Shown: in pieces, positions 50,408-63,781 of the stretch
Layout: the number at the start of each line of letters is the position of its first letter
Position numbering within the stretch: the first letter of the stretch is position 1
The notes under the pieces: model-generated
Seen by the model: only the letters and a program-made list of their open reading frames with translations
Told to the model about the DNA's origin: nothing
The model's database searches: none
Assembly (NCBI GenBank): GCA_963695545.1
Contig: OY968796.1
Coordinates: forward strand, 2,368,001 to 2,432,000
DNA: 64,000 bases
Source: Terriglobia bacterium
Lineage (GTDB): Bacteria; Acidobacteriota; Terriglobia; Acidiferrales; UBA7541
Direction of reading: 5' to 3'
Program-made: the position numbers and the translations under genes

Positions 50408-50826
50408 TGCCCCCTCACAAGCTTTGGATTATAAACACGTCTCGCTCACACCTCGTGAATCGAAATCGTCCTGTCTCTTGATGTCAAAACATAGGATATT
50501 TCTTTTCCGGCCAAAGTTGTACGTCCGCGGTGCAACATACTTAACACGCATCACGCTTTGCATGAAAGCGTTTGGCCGGAGCGGGGCCGATGTTCGGCAA
50601 TCGAACCCCCGATATCGATGCGGCCGGTGGACCGGCGCCGATCTCGATCTGCGCAACGCCGTACTTAGTCGTGATTGAGCACAACCGGACGGATCGATTC
50701 TCTCGGGGGGAGGTGTTGCCGAATCAACTGATTAGATGGAGTTGCGTCGACCGGTTGACCTCGCACGACTTATCAGTAGTTGGGCCGGTAGGCCGCCGGT
50801 CTTGGATTTCGCCAACGCGCAGCAGG

Positions 50827-51543
50827 TTAGATTCGCGCCGCGACTTCCGTGCCAGCCGCTGCGAAAACCGAATTCACTTCCGACTCCGCAATCTCCACCA
50901 GGCAACGAACGACGTCGGGGTCAAACTGCGTTCCGCTCGACGCGAGCAGCCTGCGGATTCCTTCCTCAAAGGGAAGGCCTTGCCGGTAGGGCCGTGAGGA
51001 GACCATGGCGTCAAACGCGTCGATCACCGAGACGATGCGCGAGCCGATCGGTATCTCGCTCTTGGCCAGGCCCGCGGGGTAACCCGTTCCGTCAAAATTT
51101 TCGTGGTGATGCAACGTGAACAGGCTGGCCGTCTCGAATCCGGGAAGCATCCGCAGAATCGCCCAACTATATTCTGGATGTTTCTTGACGATCGCGTATT
51201 CTTCCTCGGTCAACCGCGACGGCTTGTTCAGAATCGCGTCGGGCACGCCGACCTTACCGACGTCGTGAAGCAGCGCGGCCACTTCCATGTCCGGCAGATC
51301 CTTTTGGTCGAAGCCCATGTCCTGAGCGACGCGCATGGCCCATTCCGCCAAGCGGGTGCTGTGCACTCCGGTGTTCAGATCCTTCAGATCAAGCAGCTGA
51401 TTGAAGGCGCACACAACCGAAGACCGCAGTTCGGAGACTTGATCTTCCAATCTCTTGATCCGCAACGTCCCCGGCGCCCACGATGGGACGATCGCGGGCG
51501 CGGGAGCCGGGGCGAAATCACGGGATAAGGCCATGGGGCTCAT
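50827..51543 (-). CDS. Stand-alone HD-GYP domain phosphodiesterase
   Basis: HSTR, LLHDVGK, HHENFDGTGYP, DAFDAM...RPY; start overlaps the S8 stop (ATGA). Confidence 0.92.
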   Translation of the reverse strand: MSPMALSRDFAPAPAPAIVPSWAPGTLRIKRLEDQVSELRSSVVCAFNQLLDLKDLNTGVHSTRLAEWAMRVAQDMGFDQKDLPDMEVAALLHDVGKVGVPDAILNKPSRLTEEEYAIVKKHPEYSWAILRMLPGFETASLFTLHHHENFDGTGYPAGLAKSEIPIGSRIVSVIDAFDAMVSSRPYRQGLPFEEGIRRLLASSGTQFDPDVVRCLVEIAESEVNSVFAAAGTEVAARI

Positions 51544-52877
51544 CTGCCTTCTGAGGCCTCAAGCCACGCTTGTATGGCGGTGAAAATGTCCAAGCGTCCA
51601 TTGTTCAGGTTTGGCGTCAGCCGCACGCCGTGGGAAATAGCGGATGCCGCCTGTGATTGATTTACGGGAGCGCGCGCGTCGATCAGAAGCGCCGCCGAGC
51701 CGGTCACGAGCGGGCAGCTAAACGACGTACCGGACCCGCTGGCATACGTGCCGCCGGGATACGTGCTGACGATGTTTTCTCCCGGTGCGCCGATCCAGAC
51801 GTCGGGCGTGCCGTAGTTCGAGAAAGTTGAGATCGTGTCGGAGTCAGAGGTCGATGCGATGCCCATCACGGAATTCGTAAGCGCCGCCGGGTAGGCTGCG
51901 GCGTTTGTGGTGCTATTGCCGGCCGCGGCCACCAGCACGACGCCCGATTGCGTGGCATAGGAGACTGCCGAAGACAGCGCTTGAGAAGGAGTCGTGAAGT
52001 CGAAGCTCATGTTCACGGCGTTGGCGTTGTTCTGCACCGCGTAGTACAGCGCCGCGACGATGTTGGAAAGGTAGCCTTCGCCGTTCGCCGAGAACGCCTT
52101 GAGCGGCAGAATCTTGGCCGTTGGCGCGACCAGGTGAATCAATCCGGCTGTCATGGTGCCGTGGCCGAAATCAGAGTAGGGGCCTCCGTCGAGTACGGCG
52201 ACGGTCCGCTGATCCAGCACGGCGACGGTTCGCTGTTGCACAACGGCGGGCTGCTCCTGCTGTGAGCCGCTATCGCTGCTGGTGTCTTGCAGCGCAGGAA
52301 CATCGAGCCATTCGGATGCGCCGGGTTGGTTTCGCGTGAAATCGTATCCGGGCAGCAGCACGCGGTAAAGCGCCGGATGGTATGGATCGACGCCGGTGTC
52401 AATGTCCGCGACAATTACGCCGGTCCCGGAGACGTTGAATGCTTGTTGCGAATTCTGCAGCTGAATGATTTCCGTCGCGGGCTGATCCACGTAGCCTTCG
52501 GTAACCGTGCTTCCATAATAGTTGACCGGAACCGAATCGTAGAGACCCGAGGTATTGGTCGGCACCGGACCGACCGGCAATGGCAAGAGCTGATCAACCT
52601 CGACGCTCGTGATTCCCAGTAGGCGTTCCAACAGATTGAGCACGCCGCCGACGAGGTTGGCCAATAGATTTTTATTCGAGGTCACCAGAAATGTTTTGCC
52701 GATCGCGCCGTCGAGCGAACCCTGCACCTGACACCCGGCGGAAAGACAGAGGTTTAGGACTGAATCAAGGCCCTTCGTCGTCTGCACGATATACCGCTGT
52801 TGGGCCGACGCCGGTATTGCTCCGAGCAAAGAAAAAAAGACGACCAATATGATTAAGCGGCGCTTCAGTGTGGACAT
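51540..52877 (-). CDS. Secreted S8 (subtilisin-like) serine peptidase
   Basis: Signal peptide MSTLKRRLIIL...ASA; catalytic DIDTG, GHGT, GTSFS and oxyanion AAAGN. Confidence 0.93.
   Translation of the reverse strand: MSTLKRRLIILVVFFSLLGAIPASAQQRYIVQTTKGLDSVLNLCLSAGCQVQGSLDGAIGKTFLVTSNKNLLANLVGGVLNLLERLLGITSVEVDQLLPLPVGPVPTNTSGLYDSVPVNYYGSTVTEGYVDQPATEIIQLQNSQQAFNVSGTGVIVADIDTGVDPYHPALYRVLLPGYDFTRNQPGASEWLDVPALQDTSSDSGSQQEQPAVVQQRTVAVLDQRTVAVLDGGPYSDFGHGTMTAGLIHLVAPTAKILPLKAFSANGEGYLSNIVAALYYAVQNNANAVNMSFDFTTPSQALSSAVSYATQSGVVLVAAAGNSTTNAAAYPAALTNSVMGIASTSDSDTISTFSNYGTPDVWIGAPGENIVSTYPGGTYASGSGTSFSCPLVTGSAALLIDARAPVNQSQAASAISHGVRLTPNLNNGRLDIFTAIQAWLEASEGR
52188..52235 (-). repeat. In-frame 24-bp tandem duplication encoding QRTVAVLD x2
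   Basis: CAG CGA ACC GTC GCC GTG CTG GAT / CAG CGG ACC GTC GCC GTA CTC GAC. Confidence 0.95.
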
Positions 52878-53024
52878 CACCGTTTCTCTTTTCTCCCTCA
52901 GTGGCCGACTGCCGGTCTCTTGCCGAGAGCCACCGAGCGAAGTGACAGTTTCGCGTACCCTCGCTCGGGCCAACAATGGTACAAGGCTCCCATCTGCGGA
53001 TGTTGCGGTTCTAGTACCTTTTTC

Positions 53025-53663
53025 CTACCGTTTCGTTGTTGCTCCATCCAGTGGCACCAGTATCCTGGTGTCCTCACCCACGTGGACGGAGAGGAGTATT
53101 CCTGCCTTAAATTCAAGTTCTAGCTGGAATTCGCCGAATCCGTTGGTCTCCACCTCGTGTCTCGACTCGTGTTGATCCTTGTCGTGTCCGGAAACTACAA
53201 ATACGCGGGCGCCTGCTACCGCCTTGGCGTGCTTGGATGAATCGAGCACCTGGCCGGCCACCCAGACGCGGCTCGAGCCCGGTATCGCCTCGATTCTGAA
53301 ATCAACAAATATCCGCCCCGAACGATAAAGGATCACTCGCGGCGAGTGGCTCGCTGAACGGAAGCCCATCGCGGTGGACCCGGCGAAACTGTCTAGAACG
53401 AGCTCCGCCATCACGGTGAGCGGCGAGCGAATCGTCGGCAATCCGCCGAGCGCGCCGACTCCTTTCACCGTACGCACTAGATCCTCCGGAGCCTGATGCT
53501 CCGCGGCTTGCGACGCCGTACGTGCCGTGCGAGTCCAGAAATCCAGTGTGACCCTGCATTCCTTACAACCTGACGCGAGGTGTCGTTCCGCAGCTTCCCG
53601 CTCTTCCTGACTGCTGCTTCCGCGCACATAGTCGATCCATTGCTCAGCCGCAAAATGCTTCAC
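53025..53663 (-). CDS. Putative soluble zinc-binding (zf-HC2-like) anti-sigma factor with C-terminal beta-sandwich domain
   Basis: HLASGCKEC (HxxxxCxxC); no evident TM helix; C-terminal GQVL...TNGFGEF carboxypeptidase-regulatory-like pattern. Confidence 0.7.
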   Translation of the reverse strand: MKHFAAEQWIDYVRGSSSQEEREAAERHLASGCKECRVTLDFWTRTARTASQAAEHQAPEDLVRTVKGVGALGGLPTIRSPLTVMAELVLDSFAGSTAMGFRSASHSPRVILYRSGRIFVDFRIEAIPGSSRVWVAGQVLDSSKHAKAVAGARVFVVSGHDKDQHESRHEVETNGFGEFQLELEFKAGILLSVHVGEDTRILVPLDGATTKR

Positions 53664-53784
53664 AGTTCTCGTCCTCCGCCCGGGGGGCCTAAATGAAGTG
53701 GGGCTGACGCTGCTGCCCCTACGCTAATAAGGGCGAGCAAGCGCCCGAAAAATATAGGCCGCTCAGAAATAGTAAGGCTTTTGT

Positions 53785-56649
53785 TTACAGTATCTTACCG
53801 ACAAGAATAAACGGGGCCCAAAAGCACGGGTGGGGATGATGCTCGCGAAGCTCGATCATGGCGTACTGTAAGGCCACGGGCTTGCTCTCGCCCGCGCGCA
53901 AACGTCCGTAGAAACTTTTCATGAAATCGGCCGCAGTTTGATCGTGAATATCCCACAGTGTCAGAAGCAGGGTCTGCGCGCCTGCGCAGAGCAGCCCGCG
54001 AACAAGGCCGAGCAATTCATCACCGGCGGCAACAGCGTTCAATCCCGTCGCGCAGCCACTGAGTGCCACGAGTTCCGCAGGAAGATGCAGTTGATAAAGG
54101 TCGTAGAGATTCAGTCGCGAGTCGCCTAGGCGAATCCCGGAAAACAGCGGACTGTCGTGGCGAAATTCGCCGTGTGTGGCGATGTGAATGTAGCGGCTGG
54201 AAAGTCCGCGCTCCTTCAGCACGGCCAGCGTCGCGGCCTGGCCGACAAAACATTCGACCGAAGGGAGCACGCCTGAAACTGCGCGGACTTCGTCGAGAAT
54301 CGCCGGGGCATTTTCATCGGGAACGCCGAGAACCAGGGATTTTGTCGCTGCGCATTGCGGCTTTCGTTGAGAGAGCGCAAATAAGCTCGCGCTCGGTGCG
54401 TACGATAACGTGAACGAATCCATCAGGTACGCTGTTCCGTCGTGCAGAGCGTGAAATGGAATGTAATGTAGCGGCCCGTGAGGAACGATGATCACGTGAG
54501 AGCCCTGTAGCTTGTCGCGGATCGGCGCGATCAGTTCGTCATGAAGCCGCCGCAGGTGCGAAAGCGTCGCTTCAAGAAGCGAACTCTCAAAACGATCGGC
54601 ATATTCCTTGCCCAACCGGAATTTTGAGATCTGAAACTGCAACATGCGCAGCAAGTGCACCACTCGCGCGCCGAGGGAGACGCCGACGATCTCGATCGCA
54701 TCTCCGTGCAGCATGCACGCGACGATTTGGTCGCCGATCATGAAGTATTCGAGCAGCGTAGCGTCCGGCGGCAAGGAAGCTCGAATTGTTTCCAACGTGA
54801 CGCCCTCGCCTGATTCGAGCGTGTTCTCCTCGCTGGCCTGCATCTCGCGAATCGCCGATAGAAATTCCTCTTCGCGCGATTTCGATTGTTCTTGAAGCTT
54901 CGCAATTCGATCCGGTGAGCTTTCTTCCGGACGCAGCTGCTCGATATCGATCCGGTGGTAATACCAATTCAATTCTTCGCGAAGTTCGCGAATTCTGCGC
55001 ACCAGATCGCTTTGCCCCGTGTTATTCCCGGCCAGAATCGGTCCGCGCTGCAGCATAAGATCGGTGAGGCTGCGCGACTTTGCCTCTTCGATGCAGGCGA
55101 AGGCTTCCTCGAATCGCAGAGGGTCGGAAGAACGTTCGAGGCAGATTTCCACCAGACCTTCGTACACTCCGAGTTTGTTCTTGAGAAAAGCGATCTTTAC
55201 TTCTTCTCCTCGCAGACCGCTGCGAAGCTTTTCGAGTGCGGCGCGCGCGTGCTGAAACGATTCGTAGGCCGCCTCGTTGTTTCCACCCGCGCGATGGATT
55301 TCTCCCATCAGCGACCAGGCCTGGAACGCAAGTGGCGCGGCATCGAGCGGCTGCAGCCGTTCGAGCGCGGATCGGCACTCGCCACCCGCGGCGCGCCAAT
55401 CTCCGCTCCGGAGCGAAATCCGGGCCAGTAGCAGATCACAAAGCACGGCCTTGCCGATCAAAGCCGATGTCGAGAAAAATGAAAGAGCCTTTTGGCAGAG
55501 CCGGCGCGCTTCAAATAACCGCCCTTGTTCGCAGAGCAGCAGAGCCTGGTACAAGTCGAGCAGCCAGGGCCATACTAGATTTTTCTCGGCCACAAACTCC
55601 TTTCGCGCCGCGGTGAACAGCTCGATCGCTCGAAAGGCCTGTCCTTGCTGCCCCAGCGCGATGGCTTCGTTCGCGAGGCATTTGGCCGCCTCGTAGCCGG
55701 TGCCAACCTCCAGAAATAGCCGATGCGCGTCGTGCGCCGTCTCGACGGCCTCGCTGCTGAGGTTCAATTCCAAGTAAATTTCCGATAGATCCATGTGGCA
55801 GAGCGCAAGCTGATAGGTGTCGCCGTTCTTGCGGCACGCTTCCCGCGCAAACAGCAGACCCTGGATCGCCCGGCTGTATTCGCCGCGCAGGTAATAGAGA
55901 TAGGCGATGTTGTAATCGGCCATAGCCGTGAGCAGCGGCATGCCGCGCTTTTCGCAGAATTCACGCGCGTTTTGATATGTTTCGAGCGCGCGCGGAAAAT
56001 CATTCAGCGCAATCAGGCAAACCGCCAGATTGCTCAACACCGCAGCGATGGCTTCGTGATCGTCCCCGTTGCGCAGAAATTCGTAGGCGCGTTCGTAGCA
56101 CGCCAGGCCTTCTTCTAGACGATCCTGGCGGTGAAAAATGTTCCCGACGTTTATTTCGAGGCGCGCAATGCGCCGCGCATCGCCCAGTGCCGTAAAAATA
56201 GATCGCGCGCGATCCGCTGCGGCCAAGGCTCGTTCGTATTCTCCGAGCAAAATCATCGGTTGCAGGGAGCCGCTCAGACTGATTCCGATCTCGCGTTGGT
56301 TTCCCGCCTTTTCGTAGCTTTGCAGCGCCTGCTCGTGCAGTTCGATGGCCTCGTGATTTTTCCCAAGCGTGAACACGGCGTTGGCCTTCGCGCGCAGGCT
56401 TCGTCCGAGTGATTCCGGATTGTCAAGTTCGCGGGCGATCATCACGGCCGCATCGGCCAGCACCAGCGCAAGGTCCGCATCGATGCGCACCTGCGCGTGC
56501 ACGGCTTCCGCGAGTTGCTCGACGACCTCCGCATTTAGCAACTGTTGATGGCTCGCGAGGAATTGTTTGCGCGCCGCCTCGCTCGGAAGCTCGCTTAATT
56601 CCCGCAGGAAAGTTTGGAGAGGAGCCGAAATGTCGTTGATCGCGATCAC
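53785..56649 (-). CDS. TPR-CHAT (caspase/HetF-like) protease
   Basis: Long TPR array, coiled segment, then CHAT domain with IVPHGPLHYIPFHAL, HIATHG (His) and LSGCATG (Cys), ending WAPFILVG. Confidence 0.93.
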   Translation of the reverse strand: MIAINDISAPLQTFLRELSELPSEAARKQFLASHQQLLNAEVVEQLAEAVHAQVRIDADLALVLADAAVMIARELDNPESLGRSLRAKANAVFTLGKNHEAIELHEQALQSYEKAGNQREIGISLSGSLQPMILLGEYERALAAADRARSIFTALGDARRIARLEINVGNIFHRQDRLEEGLACYERAYEFLRNGDDHEAIAAVLSNLAVCLIALNDFPRALETYQNAREFCEKRGMPLLTAMADYNIAYLYYLRGEYSRAIQGLLFAREACRKNGDTYQLALCHMDLSEIYLELNLSSEAVETAHDAHRLFLEVGTGYEAAKCLANEAIALGQQGQAFRAIELFTAARKEFVAEKNLVWPWLLDLYQALLLCEQGRLFEARRLCQKALSFFSTSALIGKAVLCDLLLARISLRSGDWRAAGGECRSALERLQPLDAAPLAFQAWSLMGEIHRAGGNNEAAYESFQHARAALEKLRSGLRGEEVKIAFLKNKLGVYEGLVEICLERSSDPLRFEEAFACIEEAKSRSLTDLMLQRGPILAGNNTGQSDLVRRIRELREELNWYYHRIDIEQLRPEESSPDRIAKLQEQSKSREEEFLSAIREMQASEENTLESGEGVTLETIRASLPPDATLLEYFMIGDQIVACMLHGDAIEIVGVSLGARVVHLLRMLQFQISKFRLGKEYADRFESSLLEATLSHLRRLHDELIAPIRDKLQGSHVIIVPHGPLHYIPFHALHDGTAYLMDSFTLSYAPSASLFALSQRKPQCAATKSLVLGVPDENAPAILDEVRAVSGVLPSVECFVGQAATLAVLKERGLSSRYIHIATHGEFRHDSPLFSGIRLGDSRLNLYDLYQLHLPAELVALSGCATGLNAVAAGDELLGLVRGLLCAGAQTLLLTLWDIHDQTAADFMKSFYGRLRAGESKPVALQYAMIELREHHPHPCFWAPFILVGKIL

Positions 56650-57242
56650 GCGTGTCCCTGTGATTCAAGTTCCTTTCGCAACCGCTTCAGGCAGCGCCCG
56701 CGTATGAATCCGATCGATCCAGTGGCAATTCCCAGGCGCGCCGCGACTTCCGCGTACGGAAGGGCCGGCTCGTGAAAGAAAAGCATCTCCACCAGGCGCG
56801 CGCACCGAGGAGGCAGACCGGCCACGGCGTCGCGAAGAATTTGTTCCTGCTCTGCTTCCCGCAGAATCTGTTCGGAATCAAGCGCCGGGTTTCCGCGCGC
56901 CGGCGGCTCTTCGCCCTCCACTAGGTGAATTGAGCGCGATTCCAGGCGCTTCCATTGAATGCATTTGTGCGCGGACACCTGCATCAGCCACTTGGGAAGA
57001 GCTTTTGGCTCGCGGAGCGACCCGAGTTCTGAAAGTAGTTCCACGCAAACCGATTGGAAAATATCCGCCGCCGCATCCGGCCCCAATTGAAATTTGATCG
57101 GGATGGAATAGATCAAATTCTTATACTTGTCGACGAGGGCTTCCCAGGCTTCCTGGTTTCCATCGAGACATTCTCGCACCAGCCGTGTATCCGTCCATGG
57201 CGCGGTGGAGGGCAGTGCAACGTCGGTGAGAGGTGCGGTCAT
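56646..57242 (-). CDS. ECF RNA polymerase sigma factor
   Basis: D..LVRECLDGNQEAWEALV region 2; LPPRC...Y.EVAARLGIATGSIGFIRGRCL region 4; ATG 57242 overlaps the SBP stop. Confidence 0.92.
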   Translation of the reverse strand: MTAPLTDVALPSTAPWTDTRLVRECLDGNQEAWEALVDKYKNLIYSIPIKFQLGPDAAADIFQSVCVELLSELGSLREPKALPKWLMQVSAHKCIQWKRLESRSIHLVEGEEPPARGNPALDSEQILREAEQEQILRDAVAGLPPRCARLVEMLFFHEPALPYAEVAARLGIATGSIGFIRGRCLKRLRKELESQGHA

Positions 57243-59047
57243 CGTGCCCCGCCGGCGGTGTCCTTGCGAACGAACAATTCTTCCGCGTTCCAATCCGCAT
57301 AAGGCGCAAGAATCGCGGGCTCGAAATTCCCAACGCTGTTTTTCGCCGCCAGCAATATGTTCGGACTCACCAGGAAGACAACGGGGACGTTTTGAGCGAC
57401 CAACTCCTGCACCTGATCGTAAATCTTCTTGCGCTCCGCGTACTGCGGCGAAACTTCCTGCTTGCGCATCAGTTCGTCCACTTCTGCTTCCCACGGCGTG
57501 GCCGGTTTGGTCTCCCCGAGATGCCACACGTGCGTACTGCCGTCCGACGTCCACACGTTCATTTCCGCGGTCGGGTCCGTGTCGCCGGTTCCGAGCGAGA
57601 GCAGGCACGCCTCGTAATTGAAAGTATTGAACACGCGATCCACCATGGACCGAAACTCCATCGAAACGACGTCGACATGCATCCCGAGCTGCGAAAGATC
57701 GTGCTGAATCATCGTGGCCATCTGCAGCCGTTGTGCGTTCGAGGAACTGGTGAGGATCGAGAATTCCACGGGCTGGCCGGTGCCGTCCTGAAGCGTTCCA
57801 TCGCTCTTCCAGGAAAATCCCGCTGCGGCCAGAAGTTGCCGCGCCTGTTCGAGGGATCGCGCAGGACGCGGCAGGTTTTGATCCATCCATCTCTTGTTTC
57901 CCGGCGTCACGTTGCCCCAGATCGGCGTGGCGCGCCTCTCGAAAACAAGCCGCACCATTGCGTCGCGGTCCACCGCGAGGGAAACGGCCTGCCGGAAGCG
58001 CACATCGCTGAACCAAATTTTCTTCCGAGCGATATCCGCAGGCTGATCGGAGGAAGGATCGTTCAAATTGAAAAATAGAAAGTTGTATTCGAGGCCGGGC
58101 CCAAGATCGTAAATCCTGTATCCGCCCGCATCCTTTTTTCCGTCCAGCAGACCGTAATTTTGCGCGCTGAATCGACTGAGCACATCGGTTTCGCCCGATT
58201 GGAATCGCAATACCTCCGCGTCCTCGCTGGCCACAAACAGATATGCGATCTCGTCGAGATACGGCAGGCGCTTGCCCTGGCCGTCTGTCTTCCAGTAGTA
58301 GGGATTGCGTTCCAACACAACACGTTGCCCCGGCACGTACTCCTTCAGTCGAAATGGGCCGAGCCCTGCAATTTGATTCGGAGCCACTGTCGTGCCCCAC
58401 GCGTCGCCCAACTTCCCCGCCAGGTACGCGCTCTCCAGCAGATGTTTCGGCAGGATCGCCACGCTATCGAACAGCCGTTCGGCCGCCGCATACGGCTCCG
58501 CCATCGAAAACTCCACTTGATCTTCCGCGAGCTTTCGCACCGCGATCGGTTTGTCGCCAACGATCAGCAGATCGCGCTGCGGAGAATCCACCTTCTCATC
58601 CAGATACACTTGAAAACTGAACACCACGTCATCCGCGGTAAATGGATATCCGTCGGAGAATTTCACGCCATGACGAAGTTGCAGCACGTATCGCCGGCCG
58701 TCCGGCGATACCTTCCACGATGTCGCCAGCGCAGGTTCTGTGCCTTGGGATAACCGGTTGATGTGGATCAGGTCCGCCATCATCAATCCCAGGATTTCTT
58801 TCGAAGACCCATCCACCGCGAGAACCGGATTGAATGTTTTCGGCTCGGACCGCAACGCAAAAACCAAGCGCCCTCCGAACGTGCCTTCCGGAGCCGTTGA
58901 GCGAACCAATTCTTCGGACGTTGCGGAGTCCTGCGGGGTCGGTGACGCGGCGCGCACACCCGCCAGTGCCAGCGCAGCTGCCACCAACAGGAACAGAGAT
59001 GTTCTCTTCCGGGTGGAAATGTTCTCCCTGCGCGGCGATTTATTCAC
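57239..59047 (-). CDS. Oligopeptide ABC transporter substrate-binding protein (family 5)
   Basis: EPKTFNP, PALATSW.VS.DG, FSDG.PFTADDVVFS, GLGPF, LERNPYYW; GTG start overlapping the permease stop. Confidence 0.92.
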   Translation of the reverse strand: MNKSPRRENISTRKRTSLFLLVAAALALAGVRAASPTPQDSATSEELVRSTAPEGTFGGRLVFALRSEPKTFNPVLAVDGSSKEILGLMMADLIHINRLSQGTEPALATSWKVSPDGRRYVLQLRHGVKFSDGYPFTADDVVFSFQVYLDEKVDSPQRDLLIVGDKPIAVRKLAEDQVEFSMAEPYAAAERLFDSVAILPKHLLESAYLAGKLGDAWGTTVAPNQIAGLGPFRLKEYVPGQRVVLERNPYYWKTDGQGKRLPYLDEIAYLFVASEDAEVLRFQSGETDVLSRFSAQNYGLLDGKKDAGGYRIYDLGPGLEYNFLFFNLNDPSSDQPADIARKKIWFSDVRFRQAVSLAVDRDAMVRLVFERRATPIWGNVTPGNKRWMDQNLPRPARSLEQARQLLAAAGFSWKSDGTLQDGTGQPVEFSILTSSSNAQRLQMATMIQHDLSQLGMHVDVVSMEFRSMVDRVFNTFNYEACLLSLGTGDTDPTAEMNVWTSDGSTHVWHLGETKPATPWEAEVDELMRKQEVSPQYAERKKIYDQVQELVAQNVPVVFLVSPNILLAAKNSVGNFEPAILAPYADWNAEELFVRKDTAGGAR

Positions 59048-60075
59048 GACACAACTCCACCGGCACGAGCCGCCAACACGCTCGACACGCTGTTGTATGC
59101 GAGAAATACCGGCACCAGCACGAGAGCCGGCAAATACATCCACCATTCCGTCTGCAGCACGCGCACCTGCTGCAGGCTTGCCAGCAGATTGCCCAAACTC
59201 GGAGCGGGCTCGCCCACGCCCAGCCCGAGGAACGAGAGAAACAGTTCGGCAAGAATGAACTGAGGAACCAACAACGCTGCTTGCGTCCAGATCACCGGCA
59301 TGGCTTGCGGCAAAACGTGTCGCCGGAGCAGATATGCGTCCGACGCTCCGAATCCGCGCGCCGCGCTCACAAAGTCGCGTTCCTTCGCCGCCAGCGTGAT
59401 TCCGCGCACCAGTCGCGCCGGCCGCGCCCATCCCACAATTCCGATAACCGTGATGATCAACAGGAAAGCCTGCGCCGGACTCACGTGCAGCGGCAGCGTC
59501 GCGCGTACGGCAAACAGCAAAAATAGCCACGGCACGGCCATAAATAATTCTGTCCAGCGCATGAGCAAGGAATCCACCAATCCGCCCGCGTAGCCTGCGA
59601 GTCCGCCGATCACTAAGCCGAGCAAGAGTGAAACCCCCGCAGCCAGTAGTCCTGCATATAGCGAGAGCTGCGCTCCGAACACCATCCGCGAGAAAAGATC
59701 TCTTCCGAACTCGTCTGTGCCGGCAAGGAAAATGTGCGCGGGCGCGCTCGCCCCGAACAAATGGCGATCCGCGGAAAATATTCCCAACACACGATACTCA
59801 GGTCCGCGTACAAACAATCGGATCGGATAGGTGGCGGTTTTCACTTCCTCATATTCGTCCGGATTCGTCGGCGATTCTTCGGCGGCGTAAACGAATGGCC
59901 ACGCATGCAGCTTGCCGCGCCCATCGACCAGATGAATCCGCGTCGGCGCGCTGGCGGCGAAATCACGGTCTTGCTCGGCCGGATCGTACGGCGCAAAAAA
60001 TCCGGGCACGAGCAACGCGGCATGAACTGCCGCGAGAAAGATTAGAGATGCCACGAAGATACGATTGCTCCGCAC
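59044..60075 (-). CDS. Oligopeptide ABC permease (OppC/DppC-like)
   Basis: GTDEFGRDLFSR, WARPARLVRG, FVSAARGFGAS, LSFLGLG. Confidence 0.93.
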   Translation of the reverse strand: MRSNRIFVASLIFLAAVHAALLVPGFFAPYDPAEQDRDFAASAPTRIHLVDGRGKLHAWPFVYAAEESPTNPDEYEEVKTATYPIRLFVRGPEYRVLGIFSADRHLFGASAPAHIFLAGTDEFGRDLFSRMVFGAQLSLYAGLLAAGVSLLLGLVIGGLAGYAGGLVDSLLMRWTELFMAVPWLFLLFAVRATLPLHVSPAQAFLLIITVIGIVGWARPARLVRGITLAAKERDFVSAARGFGASDAYLLRRHVLPQAMPVIWTQAALLVPQFILAELFLSFLGLGVGEPAPSLGNLLASLQQVRVLQTEWWMYLPALVLVPVFLAYNSVSSVLAARAGGVVS

Positions 60076-60076
60076 G

Positions 60077-61039
60077 CTACTCCGTCCGAATCCGCGGATC
60101 GCTCCAGCAAAGAAGCGCATCCGCAACGAGGTTTCCGGCCACGAGCAGCACCGACGAAAACATGATTCCGCCGACCACGACGTTGAGGTCCCGCGAAAAC
60201 GCCGCTTCAAGCAAGAGCGGCCCCAGACCCGGCCAGCTCAGAATCACTTCCACCAGCATGGAGGCGCTCAGCAGTGACGCCAGCGAAAATCCGAACAGCG
60301 TCAGCAACGGGTTCGCAGCCGCCGGCAATGCGTGGCGGAACAACAGCCGCCGGCGCGAAATCCCATGAGCCTTTGCGGCGCGGAAGTACGGCGCGTGGAG
60401 CACTTCGACGATCGCCGCGCGAACGTGGCGGAACAGCACGGGCAACATGATGATCACCAGCGCGATCGTTGGAATGAGCAGGTGCACCGCGAGGTCCTGA
60501 AACTTTTTAATGGGACTTAGATCCGCAAAGTCGAGAGAAACCATTCCCCCGGTCGGCAACAAGCCTGTTCGCGCGGCAAATAAAAGCAGCGCCAGTGCCA
60601 GCAAAATATCCGGCACAACGAGCATTCCCGAGGAACACAAGCTGAGCAAATGGTCTGTCCACTTTCCTTCATGTGTCGCGGCCCAGATTCCCAACGCCAA
60701 TGCCAAAAACCAACTGACCAGCGTGGCCGTTACCGTGAGCAACAAAGTGTTTCGCACTCGCACCAGCAACAGCGGCGCGACGGGTGCGTTGTATGCGAAC
60801 GATTTCCCCATATCGCCATGCGCCACGCCCGCCAGCCACTCCGCGTACCGCGCAGGCAACGATCGATTCAATCCGTATTGCGACCGCAGCGCGGCCACGG
60901 TCTCCGCGCGAACCTCGGGCTGCAGTTGCATTTCGGAAAAGAAATCCCCGGGCGCGAGCTGCATCAATGCGAAGGAGATGAACGACACACCGAGCAGCAG
61001 AAAAACGCCGTGAAGGAGGCGCCGAGTGAGATATCGCAT
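60077..61039 (-). CDS. Oligopeptide ABC permease (OppB/DppB-like)
   Basis: LAPGD, GDMGKS, AKAHG, VE.I.SWPGLG, DPRIR. Confidence 0.93.
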   Translation of the reverse strand: MRYLTRRLLHGVFLLLGVSFISFALMQLAPGDFFSEMQLQPEVRAETVAALRSQYGLNRSLPARYAEWLAGVAHGDMGKSFAYNAPVAPLLLVRVRNTLLLTVTATLVSWFLALALGIWAATHEGKWTDHLLSLCSSGMLVVPDILLALALLLFAARTGLLPTGGMVSLDFADLSPIKKFQDLAVHLLIPTIALVIIMLPVLFRHVRAAIVEVLHAPYFRAAKAHGISRRRLLFRHALPAAANPLLTLFGFSLASLLSASMLVEVILSWPGLGPLLLEAAFSRDLNVVVGGIMFSSVLLVAGNLVADALLCWSDPRIRTE

Positions 61040-62788
61040 CTACTCGACCTCCTTCGCGGTCAGCGCGCCGGTCAAGTTCGCTTGCGCTTCATCCTCGTGC
61101 TCGCCGACTTCCGCAAAGTTCCTGTCGAGGAGTGAATCGCCGCGGCTGGATCTCGCCACAATTTGACCGTCGCGCAGTACGGCGATTTCGTCTGCGACTC
61201 GCGCCGCCAGTTCAAGATCGTGTGTGATGAATAGATATGTAAGGCCACGGTTAGCCCGCAATTCGCGGAGCAGGTCGCTCAGCTGCGCCTGCAAGAGCCG
61301 ATCAAGGCCGGAAAATGCTTCATCGAAGATCATGAACTCCGGCTCGAGGATGAGCGCACGTGCGATCGCCAGCCGCTGTCGCTGCCCGCCGCTAAATTCC
61401 GCGGGCAGGCGATCTCCTTGCGAGCGACTCAGTCCAACTTGCTCCATCATCGCGAGCGCCCGCTCCCGCCGCTCCTCTTGCGTGCCGGCACTTTCGATCG
61501 TCAGTGGTTCGGAAACGGCTTGCCACGCGCGCATCCCCGGATTTATCGAGGAGACGGGATCTTGAAAAATCAGCTGGATGCGCCGACGGTGCCGACGAAG
61601 CGCAGCGTTTGGCATGCGAGTGAGATTTTCCCCAGCGAGCCATATCTCGCCGGCGTCGGGCCTGGTCAGCATCGCCAAGCAGCGGGCCAGAGTTGACTTC
61701 CCGGATCCCGATGGGCCCACGAGCCCCACAGCGCCGCCGCGCGCGACGCGTAGACTTAAATCGCGCAGCGCCGGCACGACCACGCGCTTTCGCGAAAACA
61801 GCTGACGCCGCGAATATAGCTTGTGAACGTTGCGCGCTTCGATCAAGGATTGCTCATCGATCGAACCGGCCGCGGAAAAACTTCCTGGCGCAAGATCCAC
61901 GCTGCGAGTGGAGCGGAAGTTGGAAAGCACACCACTTGCCGGATCGTCTCCGCGCCACAATCCCGACGCGAGCAATTCGCGCGTGTATGCGTGCATCGCC
62001 CACTTCGGAAGCTGTTGCCATTCGCCCTCTTCGACGATTCGCCCGTCGTGCATGACCAGAACTCTGCTCGCCAATCGCGCCAGGACTCGCGGATCATGGC
62101 TGATCAAGAGCAGCGCCATGCGAAAGCGATCTCGCAGTTGTGCAAGCAAATCGAGAATCTCCGCCTGCACGGCCCAATCGAGCGACGCTGTCGGTTCGTC
62201 CGCGACGACGATCGCGGGCTGGCATGCGAGAGCCTGCGCGATCAACACGCGTTGTCTTTGTCCTCCGCTCAATTGATGCGGATAGGCGTCAAAAAATCGC
62301 TCGTTTCCCGAAAGGCGCACCGCTTCCAATAACGATTGCGCCTGCTCGACGCATTTCTTTCCGCTCCATGATCGCTTGTGCGCACGGATCACTTCCGCCA
62401 CCTGTGTGCCAATACGCATCACGGGGTTGAGCGCCAGGTTCGGTTCCTGGAAGATCATCGAGATCTCGGCGCCGCGAATCTCGTCCATCTCTCGCTCGCT
62501 TAAGCCGATGAGTTCGCGATCTCGAATGCGAATGGATCCGCTCACGCGGCTCTTAACGGGAAGCACTTGGAGCAGGGCTAAAGCGATGGTCGTTTTCCCG
62601 CATCCCGACGCGCCCATCAGGCCGAGGCATTCCCCAGAGTTCACTTCGAAATTGATCTGGTCTATCGCGGTGTGGGGTGTGGCGCCTGCTGGCGAATAGG
62701 AGACGCTCAAATCACGAACGCGCAGCAGCGATCCCGCTGCGTGCGAGGCATCGGTCACGGCGACACGGTTGTGGCTTCCCAAGCCCAT
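61040..62788 (-). CDS. Fused double-domain oligopeptide ABC ATPase (OppD+OppF-like)
   Basis: Two Walker A motifs (GASGCGKT, GPSGSGKS) and two signatures (LSGGQRQR, FSGGQRQR). Start uncertain (62758-62809). Confidence 0.92.
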   Translation of the reverse strand: MGLGSHNRVAVTDASHAAGSLLRVRDLSVSYSPAGATPHTAIDQINFEVNSGECLGLMGASGCGKTTIALALLQVLPVKSRVSGSIRIRDRELIGLSEREMDEIRGAEISMIFQEPNLALNPVMRIGTQVAEVIRAHKRSWSGKKCVEQAQSLLEAVRLSGNERFFDAYPHQLSGGQRQRVLIAQALACQPAIVVADEPTASLDWAVQAEILDLLAQLRDRFRMALLLISHDPRVLARLASRVLVMHDGRIVEEGEWQQLPKWAMHAYTRELLASGLWRGDDPASGVLSNFRSTRSVDLAPGSFSAAGSIDEQSLIEARNVHKLYSRRQLFSRKRVVVPALRDLSLRVARGGAVGLVGPSGSGKSTLARCLAMLTRPDAGEIWLAGENLTRMPNAALRRHRRRIQLIFQDPVSSINPGMRAWQAVSEPLTIESAGTQEERRERALAMMEQVGLSRSQGDRLPAEFSGGQRQRLAIARALILEPEFMIFDEAFSGLDRLLQAQLSDLLRELRANRGLTYLFITHDLELAARVADEIAVLRDGQIVARSSRGDSLLDRNFAEVGEHEDEAQANLTGALTAKEVE

Positions 62789-63004
62789 TTGCACAAGCCG
62801 GCGTTGCACGAACGCAAATGCCGCGCCTAGTCATTGTTAAGGCTAAAAATTCCCTCCTTCCAAGTCCATAGAACGACTGTCTGAGTGCTAATGTCTTAAC
62901 TTTATACATAACCTTATTATTAGCACCATGGTGCATAGAGCCCTCTCGCGTGCGTCGCGGTCCGGCCGCGCTTGATCTGCATCGCAGAGAAGGCAAAGGA
63001 AGTT

Positions 63005-63718
63005 CTAGTTAGGGCCGTGACGCTGTGGGGATGCCACCGTTGCCTTTAACCCCTCCCGAGCGGCAGGCCGCGGGCCATCGGGAATTCGCCAAGCGGTGAC
63101 CACATAGCGACGCGGGGCGGAGCCGATGAAGTGAAATGGATAGCACGTGACGAGCGTGAGCGACTGCCGGCCTTGCGGGCGCAGGACCTCGATGTCGGTC
63201 GGGTCGACGATGGCGGTGGTCGCTACGCGATAGTGATATGTACCCCTCGGCGTTTCCACGCCGATTTCATCGCCCGGTCGCAGCGCTCCGAGGTTGCGAA
63301 AAAAAGTGTCGCGATGCCCGGCGAGCCCCATCGCGCCGGAGCCGTCCGGGAAGGAAGTTCCAGGAATGTGGCCGACGGCGCGACGCAACGTTGTTTCGTC
63401 ATCGCCTTCCAGAACTATTGCAGAGAGGCCGATCTCGGGGATCGTCAACTTGCCGAGTAACTCGTCCGGTTGCACCGCTTGCACCGCCGCGGCTCCGCGG
63501 CGTAACGCAGCGAGGCGACGCGCTTGCACGGCCTGAAAAATTAGCCTGTCTGCCGAGACGAAAAGGAACCAGCCGAGCCCCGCCACCGCGGCGACCCAGC
63601 ATAAATACTCGAGCCAGCGCAAAAAGTTATCCTGCCAGACGGAGGCATGCATCGGCGGAGCCGCGGCGATATCGCGGTCGGCCGATGCAAGCACGTGCAT
63701 GGAATCTCGCGTGGCCAT
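63005..63718 (-). CDS. Class D-like sortase
   Basis: N-terminal TM; GHIPGT, AGHRDTFF, LTLVTCYPF, PRRY (His/Cys/Arg triad). Confidence 0.92.
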   Translation of the reverse strand: MATRDSMHVLASADRDIAAAPPMHASVWQDNFLRWLEYLCWVAAVAGLGWFLFVSADRLIFQAVQARRLAALRRGAAAVQAVQPDELLGKLTIPEIGLSAIVLEGDDETTLRRAVGHIPGTSFPDGSGAMGLAGHRDTFFRNLGALRPGDEIGVETPRGTYHYRVATTAIVDPTDIEVLRPQGRQSLTLVTCYPFHFIGSAPRRYVVTAWRIPDGPRPAAREGLKATVASPQRHGPN

Positions 63719-63781
63719 GGCTTGAAGAGTGTCGCCGGGCGCCCCCAACAGCGCCGCCCGGCGACTCTCGGCGCGTCGTAC

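Follow-up and report, generated by a model that had tools for sequence, protein, structure and literature searches.

A tandem octapeptide in the catalytic domain of an acidobacterial subtilase, its co-variation with a TPR-CHAT protein and its possible role as a peptide signal

Introduction

Why does a secreted protease carry the same eight residues twice in a row inside its catalytic domain? This question is raised by a DNA stretch of 64,000 nucleotides from a Terriglobia bacterium (Acidobacteriota, Acidiferrales, UBA7541; GenBank assembly GCA_963695545.1, contig OY968796.1, positions 2,368,001 to 2,432,000 of the forward strand), referred to below as the window, in which positions are counted from the first letter. 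It encodes an S8 subtilase with two adjacent QRTVAVLD units, close to genes for a TPR-CHAT protein, a sigma factor and a peptide importer. A sequence-only reading of the window had proposed that the protease carries and excises its own pheromone, which would be imported as ligand for the TPR-CHAT protein. As checks it had named variation of the repeat number among homologues and co-variation of the unit with the TPR domain or with the solute-binding protein (SBP) of the importer. The idea was to be given up if the repeat were equally common in S8 proteases unlinked to CHAT genes or proved to be a structural element. Here, we find that the copies are held identical by selection and that one position of the unit changes together with a residue of the TPR domain encoded nearby.

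Results

The S8 protease and its repeat

The protease gene has the following features:

51540..52877, minus strand: S8 subtilase gene, 445 amino acids (aa) from Met (Pfam PF00082, Peptidase_S8, E 6.7e-34)
52188..52235, minus strand: tandem QRTVAVLD units, two 24-bp copies, residues 215-230 of the 445-aa S8 protein
52536..52559, minus strand: degenerate unit-like TNTSGLYD, residues 107-114, seen by alignment in the propeptide/core linker

The open reading frame spans 51540-52976 and its likely start is the Met codon at 52877. Residues 1-25 resemble a signal peptide. Asp160 (52398-52400), His239 (52161-52163), Asn321 and Ser385 (51723-51725) lie in conserved columns, and with this Asp/His/Ser triad in D-T-G, H-G-T and G-T-S motifs and the oxyanion Asn the protein can be assigned by its sequence to peptidase S8. 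Residues 27-100 or so may form an I9-like propeptide. No Pfam I9 match was obtained at E 0.001; the N-terminal domain of the AlphaFold2 (AF2) model is arranged as beta-alpha-beta-beta-alpha-beta. The model has a mean predicted local distance difference test score (pLDDT) of 93, and its best Foldseek matches are unprocessed pro-subtilisins (E 1e-23).

The two units lie between the catalytic Asp160 (IDTG) and His239 (GHGT), and the loop that bears them ends nine residues ahead of the catalytic His. On the minus strand, copy 1 (52235-52212) reads CAG CGA ACC GTC GCC GTG CTG GAT and copy 2 (52211-52188) reads CAG CGG ACC GTC GCC GTA CTC GAC; both are translated as QRTVAVLD. The four differences between them (CGA/CGG, GTG/GTA, CTG/CTC and GAT/GAC) are all synonymous. 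The sequence-only reading had reported the duplication between the catalytic residues as well as the four silent differences, and DNA, translation and codon comparison agree with it. Its term ‘low-complexity loop’ suits the Ser/Gln/Asp-rich stretch that precedes the units and does not suit the units themselves, which form a defined motif. A six-frame translation of the 4.16-Mb genome contained no further occurrence of RTVAVLD.

Occurrence of the unit among homologues

A tandem 8-aa unit was found at the equivalent place in all of the best 120 homologues (65-100% identical), 117 of which carry an identical pair of copies. On the basis of this occurrence, a chance origin of the repeat can be set aside. 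The units of these homologues are clade-specific (QRTVAVLD, QSSAAILD, QSSAAVLD, QSTAAVLD, QSSVAVLD, QSSVAILD and QRTEAVLD). Thirty genome loci of the same class have 2-5 copies of units such as QHTAAMLD, QSTVAFLD, GSSAAVLD, DSTSAVVD or QSTTSILD; one of these loci, L010, is from the unpublished genome G075 and no claim depends on it. Adjacent copies in these loci were identical in protein sequence in 44 of 50 comparisons and identical in DNA sequence in one (L028).

Among the 150 best representatives of clusters formed at 50% identity, the Asp-His stretch was recognisable in 133, and tandem 8-mers with at least 7/8 identity were present in 75 of these. Many other representatives have two or three dispersed identical copies. 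The consensus of the unit is Q-S-T-x-A-I-L-D, and 78 distinct strings, some of them register shifts, were counted in 215 proteins. Copy number does vary, from 1 to 14 within the subfamily; copies are alike within a protein and different between proteins. Judged from these sequences, the tandem unit is a hallmark of a large S8 subfamily.

Of 211 unit-bearing proteins, 25 have an extra copy (23 exact, 2 at 7/8) in the propeptide/core linker, some 55 residues ahead of the catalytic Asp; a control region gave 0/208. In the protein P0196, the linker holds three tandem units and the loop eleven. Judged from homologous subtilisin propeptides, the propeptide tail would end about 10-20 residues before the junction copy. 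The idea that the linker copy marks the primary autoprocessing site was set aside, and our claim is limited to its position in a processed linker.

Several observations concern the wider distribution of the unit. Three loci (L156, L158 and L159) have a second S8 gene beyond the ABC genes with one intact and one decayed unit (e.g. SNSSALVD followed by QSTVAVVD), which suggests erosion of the units in these extra paralogues. In distant cassettes of a sigma factor of the extracytoplasmic function (ECF) type, TPR-CHAT and S8 from metagenome-assembled genomes of Holophagae, Planctomycetota, Phycisphaerae and Blastocatellia (L191, L193, L199, L200, L205, L213 and L224), acidic stretches of the D-x-D-x-D-G type take the place of the 8-residue units in the Asp-His loop. 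The link between S8, CHAT and sigma factor may be older than the units.

In the genomes G103, G110 and G189 (L051-L069), 4-8 paralogous ECF/TPR-CHAT/S8 cassettes per genome were seen, and every cassette has a unit of its own (e.g. QSSSEFLD, QASAGFLD, QSDAGFLD or QAETGFLD). In G189, QAETGFLD is found in three S8 genes, two of them without an adjacent TPR-CHAT gene in the stretch covered. Of the 26 S8 paralogues of these three genomes, 14 have Asn instead of the canonical catalytic Asp (A-D-I-N-S for I-D-T-G) and retain signal peptides as well as 3-7 identical units. They were considered as pseudoproteases. This idea was set aside, because they retain His, Ser and the oxyanion Asn and have an Asp two residues upstream.

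Selection keeps the copies identical

Tandem copies were compared in 90 pairs from 82 loci (80 metagenome loci, L001 and L002). The two copies differ by a total of 514 nucleotides (2-10 per 24 nt) and by no amino acid. Where Ser occupies position 3 of the unit, copy 1 uses an AGY codon and copy 2 a TCN codon in 41 of 41 pairs. No single synonymous step connects these two kinds of serine codon, and the copies have therefore stayed separate at the DNA level during the diversification of the clade. The change between Thr and Ser took different nucleotide paths, from ACN to AGY in one copy and from ACN to TCN in the other. The serine signature excludes gene conversion and leaves selection as the reason for the likeness of the copies. 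Our data thus strongly support that copy identity is maintained by selection. This had been supposed from the two copies of the window, in which selection on the peptide was preferred to a recent slip, and it holds for all 90 pairs.

The repeat was left out of an S8 tree (quick IQ-TREE, 90 rows), many forks of which are weak. On this tree, the unit type changes at least 17 times and both copies always change together. Position 6 changes most often (11 times), followed by position 4 (5 times) and positions 2 and 3 (3 times each). A simulated second copy that evolved independently matched the first at all tips in 0/20000 simulations. Identity is also found across genes. Cassettes with two S8 genes have a unit in common between the paralogues (QSTTSILD in L174 and L175, QSSTSILD in L176 and QSNTSILD in L194), and all 6-7 copies per cassette agree while their codons are different. 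Matching across genes of the same kind was observed in L044/L045 and in L066.

The units might also be an ordinary structural or metal-binding repeat, the copies of which are homogenised by slippage or gene conversion. The copy number of 1-14 indicates that slippage occurs, and the adjacent pair of L028 is identical at the DNA level. In the AF2 model of the window protein, the insert has a pLDDT of 66-82, so that the two-copy version has some order and does not look like a free loop. The same model, however, places copy 1 in a strand and copy 2 in a helix, and the long arrays of P0196 are modelled with low confidence (pLDDT 34-63 for the 11-copy loop and 46-71 for the linker, compared with >90 for the core). 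According to these models, identical copies adopt two conformations and the array is poorly ordered; together with the varying copy number, this argues that the units are not a rigid structural module. No solved structure covering the insert was found. Homogenisation is further contradicted by the 41/41 serine codons, by 514 synonymous versus 0 non-synonymous differences and by the identity of dispersed and cross-gene copies, and a purely structural role by the co-variation with another protein described below. This explanation is close to refuted and we give it hardly any weight.

Unit position 6 tracks a residue of the TPR domain

The TPR-CHAT protein of the window has the following features:

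53785..56649, minus strand: TPR-CHAT protein, 954 aa (Pfam CHAT, PF12770, E 7.5e-60; TPR_12, E 7.5e-27)
55945..56217, minus strand: unit-tracking TPR patch, about residues 145-235, key residue Ile166

TPR repeats cover about residues 85-490 and the CHAT caspase-like domain residues 699-952; the protein has no N-terminal signal peptide. In a PDB sequence search, the TPR region matched the TPRs of LGN/GPSM2 and the CHAT domain matched the TPR-CHAT protein 7zoq (E 1e-5).

As contrasts, we used locus pairs that differ at unit position 6 (Ile versus Val) and are connected by non-overlapping paths on the S8 tree. Every column of six cassette proteins was examined under a strict criterion, by which all pairs have to differ and the residue sets have to be disjoint. 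Two S8 columns, both within the unit (11/11 pairs), columns 171 and 195 of TPR-CHAT (8/8) and one SBP column (4/4) passed. Elsewhere in S8 no column passed, and the anti-sigma, sigma and HD_5 proteins as well as distance-matched control pairs had none either. The SBP column (200) was rejected, as it fails in the full table: Ile units occur with Ala (3) and Pro (4), Val units with Ala (21), Pro (2) and Ser (1). Of the two partners named in the sequence-only reading, the TPR domain therefore gave a positive result, at residue 166, and co-variation with the SBP is unsupported. Overall, the tests named in that reading mostly turned out in its favour.

TPR-CHAT column 171 corresponds to Ile166 of the window (codon 56152-56154), in the motif L-E-I-N-V-G-N-I-F-H-R-Q. 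In 43 aligned cassettes, unit position 6 and residue 166 are Val and Ile (32) or Ile and Asn (11), with no exception. A set of 63 cassettes includes cassettes that were not used for the discovery of residue 166, and these fit as well. In this set, Val in the unit goes with Ile (37) or Leu (1), i.e. 38/38, and Ile goes with Asn (13), Ala (1), Ser (1) or Thr (1), i.e. 16/16. Other units have Phe with Gly (1), Leu with Asn (1) and Met with Ile (6) or Asn (1). In paralogous cassettes of another family, Phe is accompanied by Thr, Ala, Asn or Gly in 8/9 cases and by Met once, and Leu by Val in 3/3. The overall trend in these sequences is one of size complementarity between unit position 6 and residue 166.

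About 15 more columns between residues 109 and 235 track the unit in 7/8 pairs. Close relatives illustrate the association: the TPR segments of L140 (Val unit, K-I-N) and L141 (Ile unit, E-N-N) are otherwise nearly identical, and L102/L108 are similar in this respect. A TPR-CHAT tree from which columns 100-250 had been left out shows six changes each for the unit position and for column 171, which agree in 5/5 pairs on supported branches and in 6/6 on any branch. The window fits this rule with Val in the unit and Ile166 in the receptor candidate; it also has Val at unit position 4 together with Ala203. For this second site (TPR column 208), Ala in the unit occurs with Val or Ile in 42/42 cases and Val in the unit with Ala or Met in 4/4, an association that is suggestive only. 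Asn167 and Asn170 are invariant. The TPRs of LGN/GPSM2 bind extended peptides in their inner groove through Asn residues. A complex prediction for TPR-CHAT with S8 residues 203-236 scored 0.00 without controls and is evidence neither for nor against binding.

An explanation confined to the protease has to be weighed against these results. The unit might act as a tethered pseudo-substrate, as the site of an activation cut or as a self-destruct timer; the copies would be alike because each has to fit the same S8 cleft, and the association with the TPR domain would reflect linkage. The unit does resemble a subtilisin substrate, with a small-aliphatic-Leu sequence followed by Asp, and both the extra linker copy in 25/211 proteins and the end of the loop nine residues ahead of the catalytic His would suit such a role. 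Under the strict criterion, however, no other S8 column tracks position 6 in 11 contrasts, and the columns that do lie 3.5 kb off in the TPR repeats. Between this patch and the unit, the CHAT domain, the anti-sigma gene and the N-terminal half of S8 show no tracking. Simple hitch-hiking is unlikely because these intervening sequences do not track. In addition, the 14 of 26 paralogues in which Asn replaces the canonical catalytic Asp still hold 3-7 identical units. We regard a role in the protease alone as improbable. A functional interaction of the unit with the TPR domain is, in our view, probable.

The cassette and its neighbours

The other genes of the cassette are:

57239..62809, minus strand: Opp/Dpp-type ATP-binding cassette (ABC) importer (Pfam), made up of the next three entries
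61040-62809, minus strand: fused double ATPase (Pfam)
60077-61039 and about 59044-60080, minus strand: two permeases (Pfam)
57239 to about 59050, minus strand: SBP_bac_5 binding protein (Pfam), Sec-type signal peptide at the N-terminus
56646..57242, minus strand: ECF-type sigma factor, 198 aa (TIGR02937, E 1.7e-20; Pfam Sigma70_r2/r4)
53025..53663, minus strand: anti-sigma-like protein, 212 aa, N-terminal H-x3-C-x2-C motif, C-terminal beta-rich domain
50827..51543, minus strand: HD_5 (HD-GYP-like) protein, 238 aa (Pfam HD_5, E 3.8e-40)

The gene order on the minus strand is double ABC ATPase, two permeases, SBP, ECF sigma factor, TPR-CHAT, anti-sigma-like protein, S8 and HD_5. The sigma factor scored 73 bits against TIGR02937 (cutoff 42.9) and is accordingly of the ECF type. 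The profile matches of the 212-aa protein are all sub-threshold (NCBIfam antisigma, E 6.2e-4; Pfam CarboxypepD_reg, E 0.017; zf-HC2, E 0.36). Its H-x3-C-x2-C motif is kept in 20/20 aligned homologues, and inspection by eye revealed no clearly hydrophobic transmembrane stretch. From these features, it is probably a soluble zinc anti-sigma factor. Three hydrophobic residues and then Asp-Ser-[Phe/Leu] make up an invariant motif of this protein (ELVLDSF in the window). This motif resembles the C-terminal half of the S8 unit and does not co-vary with it; it is a possible cleavage or docking site for CHAT.

TPR-CHAT, sigma factor, anti-sigma-like protein and S8 are found together in 18/20 genome loci, and ABC genes are present in 15 of those 20. 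The order of the whole cassette is kept in 30 of 34 metagenome loci for which 10 kb of upstream sequence is available. Among the exceptions, L079 and L120 have no SBP match between permease and sigma factor, and L140 and L141 are rearranged. The HD_5 gene directly follows S8 in most cassettes. S8 genes on named genome contigs, mostly from Acidobacteriota with one Verrucomicrobiia locus, were also sorted by repeat and neighbourhood. Those with at least two exact units are adjacent to TPR-CHAT in 28 cases, not adjacent in 1 and unassessable in 4; those without the repeat are adjacent in 13 cases, not adjacent in 24 and unassessable in 9. These counts are descriptive only, because the loci are kin. 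Exact repeats are almost confined to S8 genes next to CHAT, and an equal frequency in unlinked S8 proteases, which would have spoken against the pheromone idea, was not observed.

Signal peptides are present in S8 and SBP, and none is found in the anti-sigma-like protein, as in TPR-CHAT. By these predictions, S8 and SBP are exported, and TPR-CHAT stays in the cytoplasm together with the sigma factor and the anti-sigma-like protein; the importer is the only encoded link between the two compartments.

The region between the genes of the anti-sigma-like protein and S8 (52878-53024, minus strand) is conserved across 83 loci (L031-L150). It contains the palindrome GGTAC-N4-GTACC and, about 40 nt downstream, CGTAC[CT]ATTGG, which may be a -10 element. 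Most loci have a short CCC-loop-GGG hairpin between the Shine-Dalgarno sequence and the S8 start; the version of the window is weaker. An Rfam search of 50500-57500 gave no match. Directly upstream of the ABC operon lies a class D sortase gene (63005-63748, minus strand; NCBIfam NF058671, 146 bits, above the cutoff). A class D sortase is unusual for a diderm acidobacterium, and it was not seen in other cassettes by tblastn.

A possible signalling pathway

We propose that the unit is a peptide signal. S8 would be exported by means of its signal peptide, would mature and would then be cut at the repeated units, most likely by itself or by a sister S8. The octapeptide set free would be DQRTVAVL or QRTVAVLD, and its import would fall to the SBP in the periplasm and to the ABC permease encoded in the cassette. 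Once inside, it would occupy the groove of the LGN-like TPRs, where unit position 6 would face residue 166. Binding would switch the CHAT protease, which, by analogy to Csx29, Csx30 and CASP-sigma, would act on the adjacent soluble zinc anti-sigma-like protein and so control the ECF sigma factor. The predicted compartments of the cassette parts fit this pathway. We put the chance that the whole chain is right, from excision of the peptide to sigma factor control, at about even. The same even balance applies to its part in which the unit is a peptide signal module in a surface loop of a secreted subtilase.

A number of points weigh against this pathway. Cleavage and its sites, import, binding and the CHAT substrate are inferred and not observed. 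Cutting between Asp160 and His239 would divide the catalytic domain in two, and the units of the window are modelled with moderate order. The unit evolves slowly in the close clade, with 2.75 parsimony changes per column compared with 7.66 for the average S8 column, unlike a rapidly diversifying pheromone or ‘pherotype’. The co-variation has limits of its own. Residue 166 was found in a scan of about 950 columns with few independent contrasts; a formal test on the 5/5 pairs gives p 0.0625, and 0.05 is unreachable with so few pairs. The Met units (six with Ile, one with Asn) and the single Phe unit with Met break the size complementarity. Unit positions 3 and 4 were tried and rejected as noise-level, since there are 3 contrasts and many columns pass in all proteins. 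Finally, the SBP has no robust co-variation with the unit, and ABC genes are absent from the stretch covered in many paralogous cassettes of other families.

Several of these points suit a different route, in which S8 precursor that has not been exported presents its units to TPR-CHAT in the cytoplasm, and neither excision nor import takes place. Failed export or overproduction of S8 would bring the units of the pre-protein into the TPR groove, switch CHAT and trigger the sigma response, and the ABC importer would serve nutrition from the products of S8 digestion. The co-variation of unit and TPR domain and the identity of the copies are explained equally well by this route, which requires no cut in the catalytic domain and is in line with an SBP that does not co-vary and with the cassettes that lack ABC genes. 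It leaves aside, on the other hand, that across families the genes of a peptide ABC importer hold a constant place in the cassette, that signal peptides are kept in all S8 paralogues examined and that extra units are placed in the propeptide/core linker, a site that is processed in subtilase maturation. We consider sensing of the unexported precursor unlikely.

Discussion

The proposed excision, import and cytoplasmic sensing of the unit has its closest parallel in the RRNPP(A) peptide quorum sensing of Bacillota, some propeptides of which carry tandemly duplicated pheromones in the part of the literature covered (PMC11343458). In Rap/Phr, NprR, PlcR and PrgX, a secreted precursor, in some cases with several pheromone copies, extracellular proteases, Opp-type import and a cytoplasmic TPR receptor are combined, as is proposed here. 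The cassette encodes an Opp/Dpp-type importer and a cytoplasmic TPR-domain protein; transport of the unit by the former and its binding by the latter are predictions from sequence. The systems differ in their precursor, which is a small propeptide gene there, whereas here the units are inside the catalytic domain of a 445-aa protease. They also differ in the output, which is a helix-turn-helix domain, a phosphatase or an anti-activator in RRNPP(A) and would be a CHAT caspase-like protease acting on a sigma/anti-sigma pair here. The hosts here are diderm Acidobacteriota, with one Verrucomicrobiia locus, and the present system is known from sequences alone. That an RRNPP-like logic is at work, with a protease-embedded precursor, a CHAT protease as receptor and a sigma/anti-sigma output, seems to us a fifty-fifty matter.

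In the multi-copy precursors processed by Kex2 (yeast alpha-factor and the fungal dikaritins, which are ribosomally synthesized and post-translationally modified peptides), a protease of the subtilisin family frees tandem identical cores. These are systems of the eukaryotic secretory pathway in which the precursor is a protein distinct from the protease; here one protein would be both. The likeness to DegS/RseA, a pair named in the part of PMC10028731 covered, is that a protease switched on by a peptide cleaves an anti-sigma factor. DegS is a sensor of peptides in the periplasm, and RseA is a membrane-spanning protein. In the present cassette, in contrast, every regulator would be in the cytoplasm, and the signal would have to be imported through the membrane.

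The output side resembles that of type III-E CRISPR systems. According to the same portion of that article, the TPR-CHAT protein Csx29 cleaves Csx30, an inhibitor of the ECF-like CASP-sigma, and thereby controls transcription (PMC10028731). Both there and here, the gene neighbours of TPR-CHAT encode an ECF-like sigma factor and a soluble inhibitor of it, which is a probable one in the window. The activator in Craspase is a target RNA bound by Cas7-11; here a peptide is proposed, and no cas or CRISPR gene is found among the cassette genes. The CHAT domain of the window matched Csx29 weakly (NCBIfam E 8.9e-11 with a score of 41.3; PDB 7zoq, E 1e-5), and the protein is not a Csx29 because this score is far below the family cutoff of 300.

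The gene neighbourhood itself has been described before. ECF54 sigma factors occur with subtilase, CHAT and carboxypeptidase-regulatory-like proteins, and proteolytic control has been proposed from this synteny alone (PMC8999054, PMC7826278, sections covered). The neighbour set is the same as that of the window, whose sigma factor may, by its gene context, belong to this group. Those sections describe ECF54 from Actinobacteria and state that it has no anti-sigma factor; they mention no repeat, peptide signal or importer. Our literature searches, which did not cover the original ECF54 description (Huang et al. 2015), returned nothing describing this repeat or a peptide-sensing TPR-CHAT protein, and searches for the unit strings returned 0 papers. 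This points to a known, ECF54-type gene context with a previously undescribed repeat and peptide-signalling circuit. Somewhat more tentatively than for the pathway itself, we suggest that the architecture is new: a signal peptide carried as repeats in the catalytic domain and pro-linker of the protease that liberates it, taken up again and read by a TPR-CHAT protein that frees a sigma factor.

Whatever the mechanism, the unit is a rare clean case in which identical peptide copies are kept by parallel selection and not by concerted evolution of the DNA. The predicted contact between unit position 6 and residue 166 is directly testable. If the proposed pathway is true, it would provide a ligand and a mechanism for the unexplained gene context of ECF sigma factor, subtilase and CHAT. 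It would also yield a TPR-CHAT protease that is naturally switched by a peptide; TPR-CHAT is a fold to which Craspase has drawn current interest. In those Acidobacteria that have 4-8 cassettes per genome, these might work as orthogonal channels of peptide and receptor, much as multiple Rap/Phr pairs do. Signalling by peptide import and a cytoplasmic TPR receptor, which is regarded as a trait of Bacillota, would then extend to the Acidobacteriota, an abundant and poorly understood phylum of soil bacteria.

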